Shown here piece by piece: positions 4,786 to 49,345 of a stretch of 64,000 nucleotides of DNA (position 1 is the first letter of the stretch; each line of letters begins with the position of its first letter). Position numbers and translations under genes: made by a program. The stretch is from Candidatus Magasanikbacteria bacterium RIFCSPLOWO2_12_FULL_43_12. GTDB taxonomy: Bacteria; Patescibacteriota; Patescibacteriia; Magasanikbacterales; UBA922. The stretch lies in NCBI GenBank assembly GCA_001783065.1, contig MFQN01000004.1, positions 22,836-86,835 of the forward strand, written 5' to 3'. A model generated the notes under the pieces. It saw only the letters and a program-made list of their open reading frames with translations. It searched no databases and had not been told where the DNA came from.

Positions 4786-5529
4786 TTATTCCCTTATATC
4801 CTTATACTCCTTCGTAAACGGTCTCTTGAAGACTAAAATCCAAAAAAAATTAAGGGCGTAGCGATAGCCGGTGATGAAAGCGCCTTCTTTGGCTAAACGC
4901 CTGCCGGAGCTTAAAATCGGCAGACTGAAAGTAAATTTAACCGGACCGACCGCGCGAATCCTGCGCGCGATGTCCGTATCTTCGCCGTAAAAACTTATGC
5001 TGGTGTCAAAACCGCCTATTTTTTCCAAAGCCGTTCTCCTAACGATAAAATTTCCGCCCTGCAACATCGCGCCCTTTTTAAAAAAAATCTCATTAAAAAT
5101 ATAAATCAAATAACCCAAACCATAAAAAATTTTTGTCTGGATTTTTGTCCACCGCGGCAAATCATAAAATACGCATGGGCCGGATAGAGCCGCCAAGTTT
5201 GGATTACCAGCAAATTCAGTGAAAACTTTTTTTAACCAACCTCCTGGCATTATATTATCCGCGTCGATGTTGGCGATCAAATCTCCCTTAGACGCCAAAA
5301 AACCCGCTTGGCGGGCAAACACTATTCCTTTTTTATTTTCATCAACAACTTTCACGCGTGGAAACGATAGCGCGATTTCTTTTGTCTTGTCAGTGCTCGC
5401 GTTGTTGACAACAATAATTTCCGCTTCGTAAAAATTATTTTTAATCTCTTTCAAAACCGATTCCAAACACCGGCCGATATTGGCTTCTTCATTGTGGGCG
5501 GGAATGATAAACGAAATAGCAAAACCCAT
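4786..5529 (-). CDS. family 2 glycosyltransferase
   Basis: 247 aa. FIIPAHNEEANIGRCLESV...IIVVNNASTDKT...NIDADN motifs typical of GT2. Confidence 0.75.
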   Translation of the reverse strand: MGFAISFIIPAHNEEANIGRCLESVLKEIKNNFYEAEIIVVNNASTDKTKEIALSFPRVKVVDENKKGIVFARQAGFLASKGDLIANIDADNIMPGGWLKKVFTEFAGNPNLAALSGPCVFYDLPRWTKIQTKIFYGLGYLIYIFNEIFFKKGAMLQGGNFIVRRTALEKIGGFDTSISFYGEDTDIARRIRAVGPVKFTFSLPILSSGRRLAKEGAFITGYRYALNFFWILVFKRPFTKEYKDIRE

Positions 5530-5605: not shown

Positions 5606-6118
5606 TCACCAAATCGTCCCTTCGTTTATCGTCTCGTTCAGTGGATCGGAATTATAATATTGGCTCGTATCTTCGTCCACTGTAAATTCCGAACCGGAAT
5701 AGAGCGGTGTCGTCGGCTTGTTGTATTGTTGCGCCTTCAGCAAATATTTGTTGACAAATAAAGTTATGCTGAACGCGCTGAAAGTTATCAGCAGGCCGAT
5801 GACGCAATAACGAATTACTTTCTTCCCCTTTTCAACTTTTTCTTCCTCGCCGGCGGATAAAGTAATCAAAAAACCGGCGTAAACCATATAGAGTGTAAAC
5901 AAAACTCCCACTGTTCCAAGCATCACCTGAACCACCAGCGCCGCCACCTCTCTCGGGTCGCGAGCGTTGCCATAGTTCGCGCCCTTTGTCCCCGCGGCGG
6001 ATTGCAATTGGGTTTGCAGGTCGGTGGTGTAGTCGGCGGATGCTGGAAGAGCTGGCAACACGAAGGCAGACAGAATGATGATTGTAAAAAATAGTTTATA
6101 CATGGATTTAAAACACAT
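5606..6118 (-). CDS. two-helix pilin-like membrane protein, paralog 1 (VirB2/TrbC-like topology)
   Basis: Signal peptide, then a hydrophobic helix ...LYMVYAGFLITLSAGEEEKVEKGKK... and a second helix VIGLLITFSAFSITLFV, then an acidic C-terminal tail. It shares the family motif (L/F)xxY(A/G)G(Y/F)xWMTARGEEE...K....I..IG..I...Y.IT.FV with 11 downstream paralogs. Confidence 0.6.
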   Translation of the reverse strand: MCFKSMYKLFFTIIILSAFVLPALPASADYTTDLQTQLQSAAGTKGANYGNARDPREVAALVVQVMLGTVGVLFTLYMVYAGFLITLSAGEEEKVEKGKKVIRYCVIGLLITFSAFSITLFVNKYLLKAQQYNKPTTPLYSGSEFTVDEDTSQYYNSDPLNETINEGTIW

Positions 6119-37348: not shown

Positions 37349-38752
37349 TTATCCAGCGTTTGTGAACAATTTTTGTCTGATTACTTCAATATCTTGTTTT
37401 AATTTTAAATCATTTTCCATTTCAATGCCGATTTTGGTGTGCGCGTGCATGGCGGTGGTGTGGTCTCTGCCGCCCAGCTCATCACCAATTGCCGGATAAG
37501 ACATTTTTAATTCTTTGCGCAACAAAAACATAATGATTTGGCGCGGCCCGGCCAAGCGTTTTTCCCTGCTCTTGCCGGCGATGTCGTCAAGACCAATACC
37601 ATAAAAATCAGCGACAACACCAATAATATCTTTCGGTGTGGCGGAGCGCTTTAGGTTTTGCGCTTCAAGTGTGGATAAAACCGAGCGAACAGACTCTTTG
37701 TCCGGCGCAAGGTTTTTTAATTGGTGATAGGCGATTATTTTATTAAGCGCGCCCTCAAGCTCTCTAATGTTGCTTTGAATTGACGCGGCAACCATTTGGA
37801 CAAGCTCCGGATCAATAATAAATCTCTTCTCTTGGCATTTTGATTGTAAAATCGCGGCGCGAGTTTCCATATCCGGGGCGGCAATATCAACAATCATTCC
37901 CCACTCAAAACGGCTGCGCAAACGATCTTCCAAAGACGGAATCGCTTTTGGCGGACGATCCGAAGTCATTACCACTTGTTTGCGCTGTTGGTGGAGTTCG
38001 TTGAAAGTGTGAAAAAATTCTTCTTGAGTCTGCTCTTTGCCGCCAATGAACTGGATGTCATCAATTAAAAGCAAGTCAACATTGCGGTAGCGATCTTTAA
38101 ATTCTTTTCCTCGCCCCTCTTTAATTGAAGAAACAAAATCATTGGTAAAACGTTCGGAACTTACATAAAGTATCTTTGTTTGCGGGTTTTTCTCTAAAAA
38201 ACCATGACCAATGGCCTGTATAAGGTGGGTTTTACCTAGACCAACACCACCATAAACAAAAAGCGGATTATAAGCATCACCTGGCCGGTTCACCACCGCT
38301 TGCGCCGCCGCATGCGCCAATTCGTTTCCCTTCCCGACAACAAAGGTGTCAAAAGTGTATTTTTGATTCAAACCAAATTTGATACCATTTTGGCCGCCCG
38401 GCTTGTTTGTTTGGGGCGGTGGTGTGGTGTTGATAGGTTGTTGGCCGGTTATTTGTGTTATCACGGCGGGAGCAACCACACATTCGTGTTCAACCGCATT
38501 TTTTATGTTTTCAACTCGGTACTCAACCCTTTTTAATGGTTTTCCAGTCACTTTTTCCAGTATTTTTACCACATCAGAGTGATGTTTTTTCTCCAACCAG
38601 TTTTTAGCAAAAGCGCTTGGAACACAAATAACCACCTGGCCGTTTTCATATCCAGAAATGCCAGTATGGTGGAACCAAGTGGTAAAATTGGCTTTAGTTA
38701 GCTTTAATTCAAACTCCGCCAACACCGCTTGCCAGATTTCGTGGGTAGTCAT
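37349..38752 (-). CDS. dnaA: chromosomal replication initiator protein DnaA
   Basis: AAA+ motifs (NPLFVYGGVGLGKTHLIQAIG, DLLLIDDIQFIGGKEQTQEEFFHTFN). C-terminal DNA-binding domain (MSYPAIGDELGGRDHTTAMHAHTKI). Confidence 0.95.
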   Translation of the reverse strand: MTTHEIWQAVLAEFELKLTKANFTTWFHHTGISGYENGQVVICVPSAFAKNWLEKKHHSDVVKILEKVTGKPLKRVEYRVENIKNAVEHECVVAPAVITQITGQQPINTTPPPQTNKPGGQNGIKFGLNQKYTFDTFVVGKGNELAHAAAQAVVNRPGDAYNPLFVYGGVGLGKTHLIQAIGHGFLEKNPQTKILYVSSERFTNDFVSSIKEGRGKEFKDRYRNVDLLLIDDIQFIGGKEQTQEEFFHTFNELHQQRKQVVMTSDRPPKAIPSLEDRLRSRFEWGMIVDIAAPDMETRAAILQSKCQEKRFIIDPELVQMVAASIQSNIRELEGALNKIIAYHQLKNLAPDKESVRSVLSTLEAQNLKRSATPKDIIGVVADFYGIGLDDIAGKSREKRLAGPRQIIMFLLRKELKMSYPAIGDELGGRDHTTAMHAHTKIGIEMENDLKLKQDIEVIRQKLFTNAG

Positions 38753-39064
38753 ATTTTTTCTTTTGTTCTATTCTATCACACATTTTATAAAGCAAAAATG
38801 GCTTAAAATAAGCCAAAAGTGAGTAAATTGTGGACAAACTGTGGATAGTGGGGATAAAAGAGCGAAAATTCACCCAATTCACCTAATTCCTAATTCACCT
38901 AATAAAACACCAAATTTTAAAATTTTACATTTAGATTTGGAAATTTTATTAGAAATTAGGTGAATTAGATCTTAGGTGAATTGCTTATTGAGATTTTGTC
39001 TCAACTTCTTGACTTGTCATTTAATTTGTATTATACTTACTTCACTCTTAATACTACAAACCCT
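38753..39064. promoter_or_regulatory. putative oriC / dnaA control region: DnaA-box cluster plus AT-rich palindromic unwinding region plus rpmH promoter
   Basis: TGTGGACAA, TGTGGATAG and TGGGGATAA 9-mers at about 38828-38860. A roughly 110 bp AT-rich imperfect palindrome of TTCACCTAAT / ATTAGGTGAA repeats at about 38870-38985. TTGACT-17-TATACT at about 39003-39032. Confidence 0.6.
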
Positions 39065-39241
39065 ATGCCAAAACGCACTTACCAACCAAACAAGCGTCGG
39101 AGAGCGAAAAAACATGGTTTTCGCTCCAGAATGAAGACCCAAGACGGCCGCGCGGTCTTGAAAAGACGTCGAGTCAAGGGCAGAAAGAAACTTACCGTGA
39201 GCGACGAGCGCAAAGGCAAACGCACCAAAAGGACACATTAA
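39065..39241 (+). CDS. rpmH: 50S ribosomal protein L34
   Basis: [43 protein letters not shown]. The ORF-track upstream extension is not needed. Confidence 0.85.
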
Positions 39242-39307: not shown

Positions 39308-39691
39308 ATGATCCCGCAAGAAAATCGTCTAAAACACATGAAAGATTTTGAAATACTCTTTAAAGAGGGCAGATTTTTTGCCGGCAAATTTATTACCGCG
39401 AAAGTTTGGAAAATAGAGCCGGAAAAGTATCCTCGGCGGAAATATAACGCGGACGATTTGAAAATTGGTTTTGTTGTCAGCGTTAAGGTTAGCAAAAGCG
39501 CGGTTAAACGCAATCGAATTAAACGGCAAATGCGAGAAGTTGTTCGTTTGTTGTTGAAAGACGGGAAGCTGAAAACCGGTTTTCATGTTTCTATTATGGC
39601 GAAGCCTGGGACTGTTGGGGTGGAGTATAAAGAGATAGAGAGAGATATTAAAATGGTGTTGGAGAGAGCGGGGGTGGTGGGGGTAGATTGA
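39308..39691 (+). CDS. rnpA: ribonuclease P protein component
   Basis: Basic 127 aa protein with KHMKDFEILFKEG...RNRIKRQMREVVR, immediately downstream of rpmH. Confidence 0.8.
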   Translation: MIPQENRLKHMKDFEILFKEGRFFAGKFITAKVWKIEPEKYPRRKYNADDLKIGFVVSVKVSKSAVKRNRIKRQMREVVRLLLKDGKLKTGFHVSIMAKPGTVGVEYKEIERDIKMVLERAGVVGVD

Positions 39692-40569: not shown

Positions 40570-40810
40570 ATTTGATGTTAGTCATTCATTACGCCCCGTA
40601 GGGGCGGTTGATAGTAGCCAGGCCTTTTAAGGCCTGGAAAGGATAAAATAAGTTTCAAAAGTCCCGTAGGGACGACAGAAACGGTGGCGCTTCAGCAAGG
40701 TTCTGTCGTCCCTACGGGACTGGTGTTGTTTGACTGGATTACCAGGCACTAAAGTGCCTGGCCACTGTCGAGCGTCCCTAACGGGACTTTTGCGCGAGCG
40801 TTTGTTTTTC
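40570..40810. repeat. multi-hairpin repeat element (family F: GTCCC..GGGAC and CCAGG..CCTGG modules)
   Basis: agtcccgtagggacgacagaa...ttctgtcgtccctacgggact long inverted repeat. ccaggccttttaaggcctgg and ccaggcactaaagtgcctgg hairpins. A second copy is at 49130-49345. Confidence 0.7.
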
Positions 40811-43796: not shown

Positions 43797-44068
43797 AAAA
43801 ACACCAAAAAACGAAAAATAGTGTAGAGTGTTGTATACTTTCGTGATAAAAATGGAGCACGGAGCACGTAACATGGAACAACGATTGAGTGGTGAGGGAA
43901 GAGATAAAAGTCAGTTCCATATGGAACTGGAAAATATTAGCGAGGCAAGGAAAAATATTAAGATTGAGCAGAGAAAACGTGTCGTAAAATATTTTTAGTA
44001 TAATTTAGCAAACCACCATGTGTTTTATTGACAAGTTTTAGGAGTAGTGATACAATTTCGTGGTCTGA

Positions 44069-44941: not shown

Positions 44942-46039
44942 ATGTTATCAATCGGAATAGTCGGCTTGCCAAATGTCGGTAAATCAACGCTATTTAACGC
45001 TCTGACGCGCAGTAAACAGGCGGATGCGCAGAATTACCCTTTTTGCACGATTGAGCCCAACGTGGGCGTTGTAGAGGTCCCAGACGAGCGTTTAGCCCAG
45101 CTTGCCGAAGTCTCAAAATCAAAAAAAGTCATCCCAACCGCGATTCAGTTCGTTGACATCGCCGGTTTGGTTAAAGGCGCTTCCGAAGGCGCCGGTTTGG
45201 GCAATAAATTTTTATCTCACATCAGAGAAGTTGACGCGATTGTTCAGGTTGTCCGCGCGTTTTCCGACAGCAACGTTGTTCATGTGCAAAATCGCGTTGA
45301 TCCAAAAGAAGACGCGGAAATTATTAATTTAGAGCTAATTTTAGCGGATTTACAAACAATTGGAAAAAAGTTGGATACTACAAAAAAAGGCGCCAAAGGC
45401 AAAGTTGATGATAAAATTAAGGCTGAAATTGAAGTTTTGGAAAAGGTGTTGGATAGTTTGCAAGTTGGCAAGTTTGCAAGCGCGCAAGTGTATAGCGATG
45501 ATGAGGTGGCTATTGTGAGAGACTTGCATTTGTTGACGATGAAACCAGTGCTTTATGTGGTGAATGTGGACGAGAGTCAAAAGTCCATAAAGTCTTTAAA
45601 GTCAGTAAAGTCCGACGAATTGAATTTTGGTGATGCGGTTGAACACATAGAAATCAGCGCCAAAGTGGAAGCTGAGGTGGCGGAGTTGTCGCCGGAAGAG
45701 GCAAGGCAGTATTTGAAAGAGTTGGGGATTGAAAAAACCGGCTTAGATAAGCTAATTTTGGCCGGTTACAAGCTTCTGGATTTAGTTACTTTTCTTACTT
45801 CCGGCGAGCCGGAAACCCGCGCGTGGACTGTAAAACGCGGCACAAAAGGCCCGGAAGCCGCAGGCGTCATTCACACCGACTTTATCAAGGGTTATATCAA
45901 GGCCGATGTCTGCGATTGGCAAGATTTTGTCCAGTTTGGCGGTTGGAGCGGGATTAAAACATCAGGGAAGTTAAGATTGGAAGGGAAAGAATATGAAGTG
46001 AGAGATGGGGATGTTTGTTACTTTCATATAGCAACTTGA
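44942..46039 (+). CDS. ychF: ribosome-binding ATPase YchF
   Basis: GIVGLPNVGKSTLFNALT, DIAGLVKGASEGAGLGNKFL, C-terminal TGS domain. Contains a small KS-repeat insertion (SQKSIKSLKSVKSDE). Confidence 0.9.
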   Translation: MLSIGIVGLPNVGKSTLFNALTRSKQADAQNYPFCTIEPNVGVVEVPDERLAQLAEVSKSKKVIPTAIQFVDIAGLVKGASEGAGLGNKFLSHIREVDAIVQVVRAFSDSNVVHVQNRVDPKEDAEIINLELILADLQTIGKKLDTTKKGAKGKVDDKIKAEIEVLEKVLDSLQVGKFASAQVYSDDEVAIVRDLHLLTMKPVLYVVNVDESQKSIKSLKSVKSDELNFGDAVEHIEISAKVEAEVAELSPEEARQYLKELGIEKTGLDKLILAGYKLLDLVTFLTSGEPETRAWTVKRGTKGPEAAGVIHTDFIKGYIKADVCDWQDFVQFGGWSGIKTSGKLRLEGKEYEVRDGDVCYFHIAT

Positions 46040-46274
46040 TTTGGTTCGTCTTTTTGTTATTGCATCGATTTTAAATTTTGATTTTTCAATTTTAAATTCG
46101 CAATAGTATACAACACTCTATACTATTGTGGATAACTCTGGGGAAAACTTGGCTAAAATGTGGATAACTTTTCATTTTTTAACCCAATAGTATACACTAG
46201 TGTATACTATTTTTATTTAACAAGATTATTTTTTTGCTAAAATTAGCTTAAAATTATAAAAACAGCCCAAACCC

Positions 46275-46303
46275 TTGACAAGTGTTGAAAAATGTGCTAT
46301 ACT
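46275..46303 (+). promoter_or_regulatory. near-consensus sigma70 promoter TTGACA-17-TATACT
   Basis: TTGACA at 46275-46280, 17 nt spacer, TATACT at 46298-46303. Preceded at 46100-46215 by two perfect DnaA boxes (TGTGGATAA) and two perfect palindromes. Confidence 0.6.
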
Positions 46304-46309
46304 ATTAAT

Positions 46310-46700
46310 ATACTATAAAAATTGTTCTTTAAAAGTCAGGATTTGTTCCTTCTGAATTTATTCAGGTGGAGCACTTCCCTTTTTACTACTTAAAATTTCG
46401 AGCTTACCATTTATTAGCTCCCGACTCAATCGGGCAAAACAAAAACAAAAGCCAAAAATTAATGGCTAGCTCGAAACGGTGACTTCCCATTTATGCGCTT
46501 TGTGCCTTCGGGCCGAATCGTAGGGAATGTCTACCTTATGGCGGTAGAAAGGAGACTACTGTCCCCAAGGACAGTCGCGTTTCAGGTATTCTAAGTGTAT
46601 TTTAAACAAATACCTTTAGATTACCTGAAAGGCGTATCCTGGGGATACTGAGGCGGCACGCCGTTAAGTTATTTACCTAGGGCGCTTGACCGCCTTTTTT
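46310..46700 (+). ncRNA. candidate structured ncRNA of about 390 nt (unclassified), promoter- and terminator-bounded
   Basis: No ORF of 60 aa or more. Multiple stable hairpins (TCGAGCTTACCATT/AATGGCTAGCTCGA, ACTGTCCccaaGGACAGT, GTATCCtggGGATAC, GCCttcgGGC). Terminal GGCGcttgacCGCC plus TTTTTT at about 46676-46700. Confidence 0.45.
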
Positions 46701-46830
46701 AATATACGAGTTTAACATACGAATATACTAATGTACTAATGATACTAAATGTATACTAATCCCTTTGATGTTAAATATTCGTATCCATTAGTATCATTAG
46801 TACTCTATATCGTATATTAGTATTGTTGCT
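46700..46830. repeat. MITE-like palindromic element (family E), second copy
   Basis: acgaatatactaatgtactaatgatactaa...ccattagtatcattagtactctatatcgtatattagtatt. Compare with 12425-12545. Confidence 0.7.
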
Positions 46831-46930
46831 ACTCTTGACAGCGGTGCGTTATTATTTTATACTGTCAGCCCTTGCGTTAGTTGCGGTTTTTATTTATAAT
46901 ACTATCGTATTATTCGGTAATGTTAATTAT

Positions 46931-47323
46931 ATGACCAAGAAGATTAGCGCGTTCAGCAAAGATTTTTTGGACAAGATCAACGGTTTGCTTTTGTCGGAAA
47001 AAACCAGACTGGAAAGCGAGTTATCAAAATTTACCACAAAAAACAAGCATATCAAAGGTGATTACGATGCGGAGTTTCCTGAATATGGCGATAAAGATGA
47101 CGAGAACGCTCAAGAGATCGCGCAATATACCGCGGACAAACCGATGGAGATCGCGTTGGAAAAAGAATTGCGCGACGTAAATAAGTCTTTGGAACGTCTA
47201 AAGAAAGACGATTATGGTGTCTGCAAATATTGTGATAAGCCGATTGATGAAAAGAGGTTGTTAGCTCGACCGACATCAGGCGCGTGTGTGAGCTGTAAGA
47301 AGGCGTTGACGGACGAAATTTAA
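46931..47323 (+). CDS. DksA/TraR family C4-type zinc-finger protein
   Basis: Coiled-coil N-terminus, then CKYCDKPIDEKRLLARPTSGACVSCK. Likely start MTKKISAF at 46931. The upstream part of the ORF-track ORF overlaps the family E repeat. Confidence 0.7.
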   Translation: MTKKISAFSKDFLDKINGLLLSEKTRLESELSKFTTKNKHIKGDYDAEFPEYGDKDDENAQEIAQYTADKPMEIALEKELRDVNKSLERLKKDDYGVCKYCDKPIDEKRLLARPTSGACVSCKKALTDEI

Positions 47324-49129: not shown

Positions 49130-49345
49130 TGACCGTCGGGTCATTTAAAAATTAATTTCACAGTCCCATCAGGGACGATAGATAATAGCCAGGCACTTTA
49201 GTGCCTGGAACCAGAATCAACAAACACTCAAAGTCCCGTAAGGACGACACAAAGCACTTCTGCCGTCCCTACGGGACTACGATTTAAATATGAATTTTTT
49301 CCAGGGCATAAATGCCCTGGCTACTATCTGGCGTCCCTATCGGGA
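49130..49345. repeat. multi-hairpin repeat element (family F), second copy
   Basis: agtcccgtaaggacgacacaaagcacttctgccgtccctacgggact, ccaggcactttagtgcctgg, ccagggcataaatgccctgg, cgtccctatcgggac. Confidence 0.7.

Follow-up and report, generated by a model that had tools for sequence, protein, structure and literature searches.

The intergenic segment at positions 46310-46700 on the plus strand of a 64,000-nucleotide (nt) stretch of DNA from an uncultivated Candidatus Magasanikbacteria organism of groundwater, referred to here as the window, is on balance best read as an independent gene for a structured noncoding RNA (ncRNA) of about 390 nt, with its own promoter and intrinsic terminator. We also lean, to the same degree, towards the view that this RNA belongs to an undescribed family confined to Candidatus Magasanikbacteria-type bacteria from the Candidate Phyla Radiation (CPR). 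The YchF protein encoded in the window shows 100% identity to its counterpart in Candidatus Magasanikbacteria bacterium RIFCSPLOWO2_01_FULL_43 (GCA_001783015.1), which belongs to this radiation. The initial annotation of the segment had put forward a divergent RNase P RNA or tmRNA as its leading suggestion and a novel ncRNA as its fallback, and it is the fallback that the evidence favours.

The gap between the end of ychF (46039) and the ATG of a dksA/traR-like gene (46931) measures 891 bp, and the only open reading frames (ORFs) on its plus strand comprise 33 and 38 amino acids (aa), in line with the ORF-free stretch described initially. The near-perfect sigma-70 promoter of that description was likewise found in place. 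The genes and signals that delimit the RNA are as follows.

44942-46039: ychF.
46275-46303, plus strand: sigma-70 promoter, TTGACA-17-TATACT with an extended -10 TG, 11 of 12 positions matching.
46310-46700, plus strand: RNA gene of about 390 nt, delimited by its fold (z = -8.74), the nhmmer family envelope (46309-46705) and covariation.
46651-46700, plus strand: two-part terminator hairpin and T6 (46695-46700), supported by covariation, with which the terminator scan agrees.
46835-46863, plus strand: sigma-70 promoter TTGACA-17-TATACT of the dksA/traR-like gene (ATG at 46931).

Transcription of the RNA gene is predicted to start at about 46310, and its promoter is kept in every homologue examined. 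An independent nhmmer profile of the family placed the homologous region at 46309-46705, with one occurrence in the window. At the 3' end, the terminator scan reported a stem at 46679-46696 followed by T6, so that the terminator proposed by the initial annotation is present; the particular hairpin it had drawn, GGCG-cuugac-CGCC, did not hold, as covariation across the family favours a longer two-part stem. Relatives such as L039 (GGCCGAUC/GAUCGGCC; homologous loci are denoted by L numbers) retain the long pairing only. The locus thus combines a conserved promoter and terminator of its own with the lack of a conserved ORF and a separate promoter for dksA, as expected of a stand-alone transcription unit.

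The 393 nt between promoter and terminator were folded alongside 100 dinucleotide shuffles. The minimum free energy (MFE) was -141.9 kcal/mol, as compared to -95.4 +/- 5.3 kcal/mol for the shuffled sequences (z = -8.74), and none of the 100 shuffles equalled it; the minus strand of the region folds worse (z = -6.85). The following elements make up the fold.

46340-46377, plus strand: H1, the 5' hairpin (nine RNAalifold pairs, eight with compensatory changes, 20 sequences).
46378-46390, plus strand: 5' strand of helix LR, CCUUUUUACUACU, pairing with 46540-46552 over 13 bp.
46396-46476, plus strand: H2, a 9+5 bp basal stem with a variable interior (both sides changed in 12 of 14 basal pairs).
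46478-46535, plus strand: H3, a four-segment hairpin with a GGUG/CACC base and a UUCG cap, from the covariance-model (CM) alignment.
46540-46552, plus strand: 3' strand of helix LR, GGCGGUAGAAAGG, pairing with 46378-46390.
46558-46575, plus strand: H4, a hairpin with a CCAA loop, from the MFE fold.
46580-46630, plus strand: H5, a long variable hairpin (21 pairs found de novo by RNAalifold, all 21 with compensatory changes).
46639-46643, plus strand: 5' strand of the pseudoknot, CUGGG, pairing with CCUAG at 46676-46680 in the terminator loop.

Several of these elements had been picked out by eye in the initial annotation. Its 14 bp helix closing an A-rich region corresponds to H2, whose interior carries the strand CAAAACAAAAACAAAAG at 46435-46451; its CCAA tetraloop hairpin is H4, and its UUCG tetraloop caps H3 at 46507-46510. 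A covariation check of homologous loci, of the kind that it had proposed, revealed compensatory changes in every helix tested, namely LR, H1, H2, H3, H5 and the pseudoknot.

For this check, sequences were aligned with two domain covariance models, R1 and R2, and with MAFFT for helices that are anchored by their flanks. In a plain MAFFT alignment covering 19 sequences, pairing in LR and the basal stem of H2 amounts to 85.5%, as compared to 35-52.6% after sliding the 3' partners by 1-3 columns; both sides changed in 17 of the 27 pairs, and covariation scores 0.342 (at most 0.174 when slid). Helix LR, which closes a junction containing H2 and H3, is paired in 87.9% of cells, with five pairs changed on both sides; its ACU/GGU core, including a U.G pair, is invariant, while its outer part covaries. 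A divergent subgroup, read from its sequences, retains LR as AACCGCA..ACUGC / GCGGU-UGCGGUU. The invariant U.G wobbles in LR are compatible with the plus strand only, and the RNA strand is therefore assigned as plus. Because MAFFT placed the 5' strand of H3 off register in about one third of the rows, H3 was counted on the CM alignment (model R2, 48 distinct sequences), where 81.1% of cells are paired against at most 46% when slid, 175 cells changed on both sides, and the score is 0.419 against at most 0.12. In H4, compensatory changes (CUGUCC/GGACAG, CCGUC/GACGG and CCGUU/AACGG) were judged by eye, with no formal count.

The 3' domain, including the pseudoknot, is 78.7% paired, as compared to at most 60% when slid (model R1, 39 sequences). 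Each of the five pseudoknot pairs has changes on both sides, with 74.2% of the cells paired; for example, L024 and L036 have CCUAAG/CUUAGG. The outer helix of the terminator (AGGCGG/CCGCCU, 46651-46656/46690-46695) is 81.5% paired, with six of six pairs changed on both sides, and the inner helix (CGCC/GGCG, 46659-46662/46681-46684) is paired in 80.1% of cells. The 5' and 3' ends of the RNA do not pair with each other, and the first 30 nt are unpaired or only locally paired. The bases invariant in the family are ACU/GGU, GG..CC and AGGG. Two further pairings were rejected: the hairpin GUAUCC-UGG-GGAUAC of the window (46634-46648) is not conserved, unlike the pseudoknot, and the helix AGUC(46334)/GACU(46555) of the MFE fold could not be traced in L004 and L017.

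Not all parts of the fold are equally retained. H2 is wholly absent in the L013/L030/L070 clade and H5 in the L012 clade, and the L002 homologue has two GC-rich hairpin insertions of about 42 nt, located exactly in the H2 interior and the H5 loop; H2 and H5 are therefore regarded as peripheral, and the conserved core consists of LR, H3 and the 3' domain. The strand CAAAACAAAAACAAAAG in the H2 interior is conserved and single-stranded and, judged by these features, looks like a protein-binding strand. One clade does without H2, which carries it, so the core function has to reside in LR, H3 and the 3' pseudoknot domain. The inserted element of L002 (..CCGCCTTCGTCCGCCTCGGGCGGACTACGGCGTG..), at about 5400-5445 and 5620-5665 of that locus, has the look of a miniature repeat that inserts into RNA loops and leaves the helices intact; a related short hairpin, CCGCCTCTTCGGCGG, occurs in the upstream spacer near L002:5150.

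Homologous loci were collected by synteny and by iterated nhmmer profiles, including a metagenome scan anchored on a DksA-like alignment that yielded 80 loci. The RNA was found in 64 of the 94 fetched loci, always upstream of dksA and on its strand; the RNAs of the family measure about 300-490 nt. Among the metagenome loci with at least 600 nt upstream, 48 of 62 matched, and a subgroup profile added six more (about 54 of 62). In two relatives whose YchF is 82% and 88% identical to that of the window, the spacer can be aligned end to end, with an RNA part that is nearly invariant except for compensatory changes. In L004 (YchF 75% identical), the RNA is not beside ychF, yet it lies directly upstream of a dksA-like gene, and three further sets of loci anchored on DksA-like proteins also have it upstream of the dksA-like gene, with other genes preceding it. 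A blastn comparison of the window spacer with L004 matched only the upstream region of DnaA boxes and palindromes described below; the RNA itself was recognized by reading and by nhmmer profiles. The divergent subgroup (L047, L065, L082, L051, L042 and L084) is linked to the main family by intermediates that both profiles find. At the distant DksA-like loci L050, L068, L075 and L080, a coding gene reaches almost to dksA, which leaves no RNA at this position.

A pattern scan of genome contigs with CGAAAC..GGTGAC..GCGYTTYGTGCC was too strict, returning two true loci that were already known and three chance matches in high-GC coding DNA. No similarity to the RNA was found in phage and plasmid records, and a literature search returned nothing that describes this RNA or CPR origins with such features. 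The contig CAZQHU010000006.1, which holds L004 and L007, is filed as 'uncultured Gammaproteobacteria bacterium'; it carries the module of RNA, dksA-like gene and lspA, its YchF is 75% identical to the Magasanikbacteria protein, and the bin is probably misclassified or contaminated.

The RNA is part of a larger conserved module, in which a palindrome, three DnaA boxes, a second palindrome and the element GCTAAAATTAGC precede the promoter, and the RNA and its terminator are followed by a gene pair, the dksA/traR-like zinc-finger gene with its own promoter and then lspA. Upstream of the promoter, the DNA is no less conserved than the RNA. Its elements in the window are given below.

46101-46128: palindrome 1, CAATAGTATA-N8-TATACTATTG, operator-like, adjoining DnaA box 1.
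46127-46167, minus strand: DnaA-box array, with perfect TTATCCACA boxes at 46127-46135 and 46159-46167 and a degenerate middle box at 46139-46147.
46186-46211: palindrome 2, AATAGTATACAC-TA-GTGTATACTATT, conserved in position across the family.
46236-46247: small conserved palindrome GCTAAAATTAGC, in an AT-rich stretch upstream of the -35 element.

Palindrome 1 is invariant in L002 and L003, and equivalent TTGTATAC..GTATACAA palindromes occupy the same position in L004, L012, L013, L014, L047 and L065. The box array recurs with 12+20 nt spacing and constant orientation, about 130-180 nt before the RNA, at essentially every homologous locus; it was seen across about 40 distinct loci with two or three boxes each at this spacing. 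Essentially every locus has 2-4 consensus DnaA boxes, as compared to a chance expectation of about 0.09 per 400 nt. Many loci have a further box of opposite orientation next to or inside the promoter (within the spacer in L014), and in about one third of the family this box abuts the -35 hexamer or the spacer, or overlaps one of them. The two palindromes that flank the array suggest, by their placement, a second DNA-binding protein besides DnaA. Genes for TrmB-family helix-turn-helix (HTH) regulators lie within a few kb of the module in L002, L004, L006 and L095 (e.g., L095:2883-3698), and these regulators are possible binders of the flanking palindromes. A third, degenerate copy of the operator-like palindrome (TAGTATAC..GTATACTA) is found at 43815-43840, some 2.3 kb upstream of the RNA locus and flanked by the two tRNA-Ala genes, and L002 has one at the equivalent place.

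The module also lies close to dnaA, in a part of the window with the following genes.

37349-38752, minus strand: dnaA.
About 39.07-39.69 kb: rpmH and rnpA (rnpA at 39308-39691).

An RmuC gene and a tRNA cluster are carried by the window as well. The distance from the module to dnaA is 7.5 kb in the window and 5-8 kb in several genomes; rnpA is about 5 kb upstream of the module in L002, and in another contig, of 200 kb, dksA is followed 6.4 kb downstream by dnaA, to which the module is there oppositely oriented. The cumulative GC skew reaches its lowest value at 39091 and runs flat between about 33 and 44 kb. The spacer between dnaA and rpmH (38753-39065) is very AT-rich and contains three near-consensus DnaA boxes (38829-38857), five direct and inverted copies of AATTCACCTAA, and, beside the boxes, a GGCTTAAAATAAGCC palindrome similar to the GCTAAAATTAGC element before the RNA promoter. 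From these features, this spacer is probably the replication origin (oriC). As the better origin candidate, it makes the array at 46.1 kb more likely to be a DnaA-controlled promoter region or an accessory DnaA site.

Among the alternatives to a new RNA family, a divergent RNase P RNA or tmRNA of the organism is extremely unlikely, even if the size of about 390 nt fits and the promoter and terminator are of housekeeping style. Given rnpA in the window, the genome must contain an RNase P RNA somewhere, and divergence has been reported for the RNase P RNAs of CPR bacteria (Lui et al. 2021, PMC8172020). However, Infernal at lowered thresholds found RNase P RNA in all circular genomes of that study, including five of the class ABY1 (PMC8172020), to which Magasanikbacteria also belong. 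The Rfam comparison with RNase P, tmRNA, 6S and signal recognition particle (SRP) RNA that the initial annotation had called for gave no match, either in 46000-46950 (951 nt; Rfam 15, E<=10, permissive filters) or in 21 homologous loci (Rfam 15, E<=1), among which no family recurred; the E<=10 matches on 46310-46700 are miRNA, snoRNA and PyrG-leader noise of at most 22.2 bits. At gathering thresholds, Rfam 15 matched only tRNAs and two Acido-Lenti-1 hairpins in the whole window, all outside the RNA locus, and ARAGORN reported six tRNAs and no tmRNA there. The initial annotation had seen neither the CR-I/CR-IV motifs nor a tag ORF, and this holds across the family: CR-I (GGAAAGUCC-like), CR-IV and CR-V (ACAGAA-NCC-like), in the consensus forms searched, are absent from 37 members, with no exact match to CR-I or CR-V and at most chance-level matches when one mismatch is allowed, and the core motifs of tmRNA and the SRP motif GGAAGCAG are missing from the same members. 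The fold supported by covariation has neither a P1-type pairing of the ends nor a P4 helix. In L047:1235-1265 and L065:1255-1285, the LR 3' strand runs into a T-loop-like GGUUCAAAUCC; as a tmRNA- or tRNA-like element it was rejected, as its stem forms no T-arm and has no Rfam match. The least probable reading of all is a small-protein gene, either ORF 46366-46482 (38 aa) or ORF 46493-46594 (33 aa). Both ORFs exist and the second is intact in the closest relative, L002, but neither survives in L004, L017, L012, L013, L014, L041 and L029, single-base indels inside ORF 46366-46482 separate even close relatives, and the substitution pattern is that of paired helices. No ORF is common to the family members, and the conserved short peptide that the initial annotation had named as contrary evidence was thus looked for and not encountered. 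As to the two Acido-Lenti-1 hairpins, they lie at 49162-49208 and 40592-40637, both on the minus strand, score 43.4 and 37.6 bits (gathering threshold 37), and occur here in a CPR genome, outside the phyla after which the motif is named.

The remaining alternatives accept the locus as it is and assign it another role. A very long cis-acting leader, of attenuator or riboswitch type, that controls dksA-lspA through the terminator would account for the fixed place of the RNA directly upstream of dksA on the same strand (median 106 nt from the RNA end to the start codon), and a terminator whose loop takes part in a pseudoknot is in principle a switch. Against this, a promoter with at least 9 of 12 matches is present in the spacer between RNA and dksA at 28 of 32 homologous loci, as compared to 6 of 32 shuffled spacers, and the window has its own at 46835-46863. 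Unrelated insertions of 100-200 nt are also tolerated between the RNA terminator and dksA, a length of 300-490 nt far exceeds that of known leaders, and no conserved structure that competes with the terminator was found. Since the downstream gene usually has its own promoter and the spacer tolerates insertions, the RNA is not taken for a leader, and this role is very unlikely. A DksA/TraR-like factor binds in the secondary channel of RNA polymerase, and an RNA polymerase-binding RNA of the 6S/Ms1 kind that works with the adjacent factor would explain why the RNA always lies beside a dksA/traR-like gene, whatever gene is upstream of the module; the stand-alone gene with a strong promoter and H2, a long stem around a large open A-rich interior, would also fit. 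Yet the fold is branched and pseudoknotted with unpaired ends instead of a rod with a central bubble, Rfam yields neither a 6S nor an Ms1 match, H2 as the sole bubble-like part is absent in one clade, and adjacency to a zinc-finger protein that is a putative DksA is by itself weak evidence, so that we regard this as quite unlikely. Slightly less improbable, though still unlikely, is that the locus is part of a replication origin or a DnaA-titrating site (datA/DARS-like), where the promoter would mainly serve to open or activate the DNA and the RNA would be a secondary product. At E. coli oriC, gidA has such an effect through its transcription away from the origin. The conserved box array with a stretch of 26-29% GC directly upstream of the promoter, the distance of 5-8 kb to dnaA in several genomes and the change of GC skew sign between about 33 and 44 kb would agree with such a role. 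Extensive compensatory change across the helices, however, shows selection on the RNA product itself, and the dnaA-rpmH spacer has boxes, repeats and AT-rich DNA of its own together with the exact skew minimum at 39091. An origin or titration role can hold alongside a functional RNA.

In the spacer between the RNA terminator and the dksA promoter, the window has a long imperfect inverted repeat rich in TACTAAT/ATTAGTA (46703-46830). L002 lacks this repeat, and a GC-rich insertion of about 130 nt, unrelated to it, occupies the same place in L003; this spacer appears to be a hotspot for small inserted elements.

Returning to the independent structured RNA, we consider a role in trans likely, in which a stable RNA binds protein or serves as a scaffold and is neither a leader nor an mRNA. 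DnaA bound to the box array may control synthesis of the RNA, and judging from the array, we hold the chances for and against such control to be even. If so, the level of the RNA would follow the state of replication initiation. The product might then feed back on initiation, possibly as a ribonucleoprotein (RNP) with DnaA, the origin, or RNA polymerase in concert with the DksA/TraR-like neighbour as its target. A functional link of the RNA to this neighbour or to RNA polymerase is doubtful, and it is more doubtful still that the RNA is, as a whole, a DnaA-controlled, replication-coupled housekeeping RNA of CPR bacteria whose product feeds back on initiation or on cell-cycle-linked expression. 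If that were true, it would represent a class of regulator without a described counterpart.

Several points weigh against the interpretation that we favour. The ends and the abundance of the transcript are predictions from the DNA, the trans-acting role is argued by exclusion, and no partner protein or target of the RNA was found. The box array could serve an origin or DnaA titration without regulating the RNA promoter, and in the window no DnaA box overlaps this promoter. Copy number and taxonomic range were judged from the window and the fetched loci. With regard to covariation, alignments A5 and A9 were fitted to the model structure and favour it, and the finding that none of 500 shuffles matched the observed score in each of the three counts (LR with H2, H3 and the 3' domain) overstates significance because the sequences share ancestry. 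The slid-partner control and the de novo RNAalifold prediction are the fairer evidence, and both agree.

CPR bacteria, or Patescibacteria, make up a large share of bacterial diversity, have genomes of about 1 Mb and are nearly all uncultivated. An RNA of 300-490 nt with its own strong promoter, retained across a whole lineage of such reduced genomes, is for these reasons very likely to be important. Large structured RNAs of unknown function are rare, and in earlier cases such an RNA proved to be a ribozyme, an RNP scaffold or an RNA-only assembly. The constant association of the present RNA with a DnaA-box array near the origin provides a testable idea, namely that the level of the RNA is tied to replication initiation, and the module offers new landmarks for origin mapping in CPR genomes. 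The family can enter RNA annotation resources, so that its loci are no longer taken for empty intergenic DNA and are not confused with missing RNase P or tmRNA genes.

Compared with known systems, the RNA resembles RNase P RNA in its size, its stand-alone housekeeping-type gene and a multi-helix fold with a long-range helix, and differs from it by the lack of a CM match at E<=10, of P4, of the CR-I/CR-V core and of P1, as well as by its 3' intrinsic terminator. It shares its size and the presence of a pseudoknot with tmRNA, but has no tRNA-like domain, CCA end or conserved tag frame, and ARAGORN was negative. With 6S and mycobacterial Ms1 RNA it has in common that its gene is independent, with a strong promoter, and that the dksA-like neighbour possibly ties it to the transcription machinery; those RNAs are rods with a central bubble, whereas this one is branched and pseudoknotted and has no Rfam match. 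SRP RNA, with its domain IV helix and conserved loops, is also distinct, as no Rfam SRP match was found. The cluster of spaced consensus boxes beside a promoter near the origin recalls DnaA-regulated promoters and oriC flanks (dnaA autoregulation, gidA/mioC, datA/DARS), but the adjacent unit here is a conserved structured RNA gene, and we know of no such gene described in this role. The RNA thus stands as a family without known relatives. Closest to it in kind are the orphan large structured RNAs OLE, ROOL, GOLLD and the raiA-motif RNA, although none of their Rfam models matched and no other Rfam 15 family recurred across the homologues, its length of 300-490 nt is smaller, and its hosts are CPR bacteria rather than Firmicutes, Actinobacteria or phages, with a DnaA-box array uniquely coupled to the gene. 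Besides the lack of a known biochemical function, what it shares with them is a long, intricate fold with long-range helices, a pseudoknot and strongly conserved sequence cores, restricted to one lineage in a conserved gene neighbourhood.

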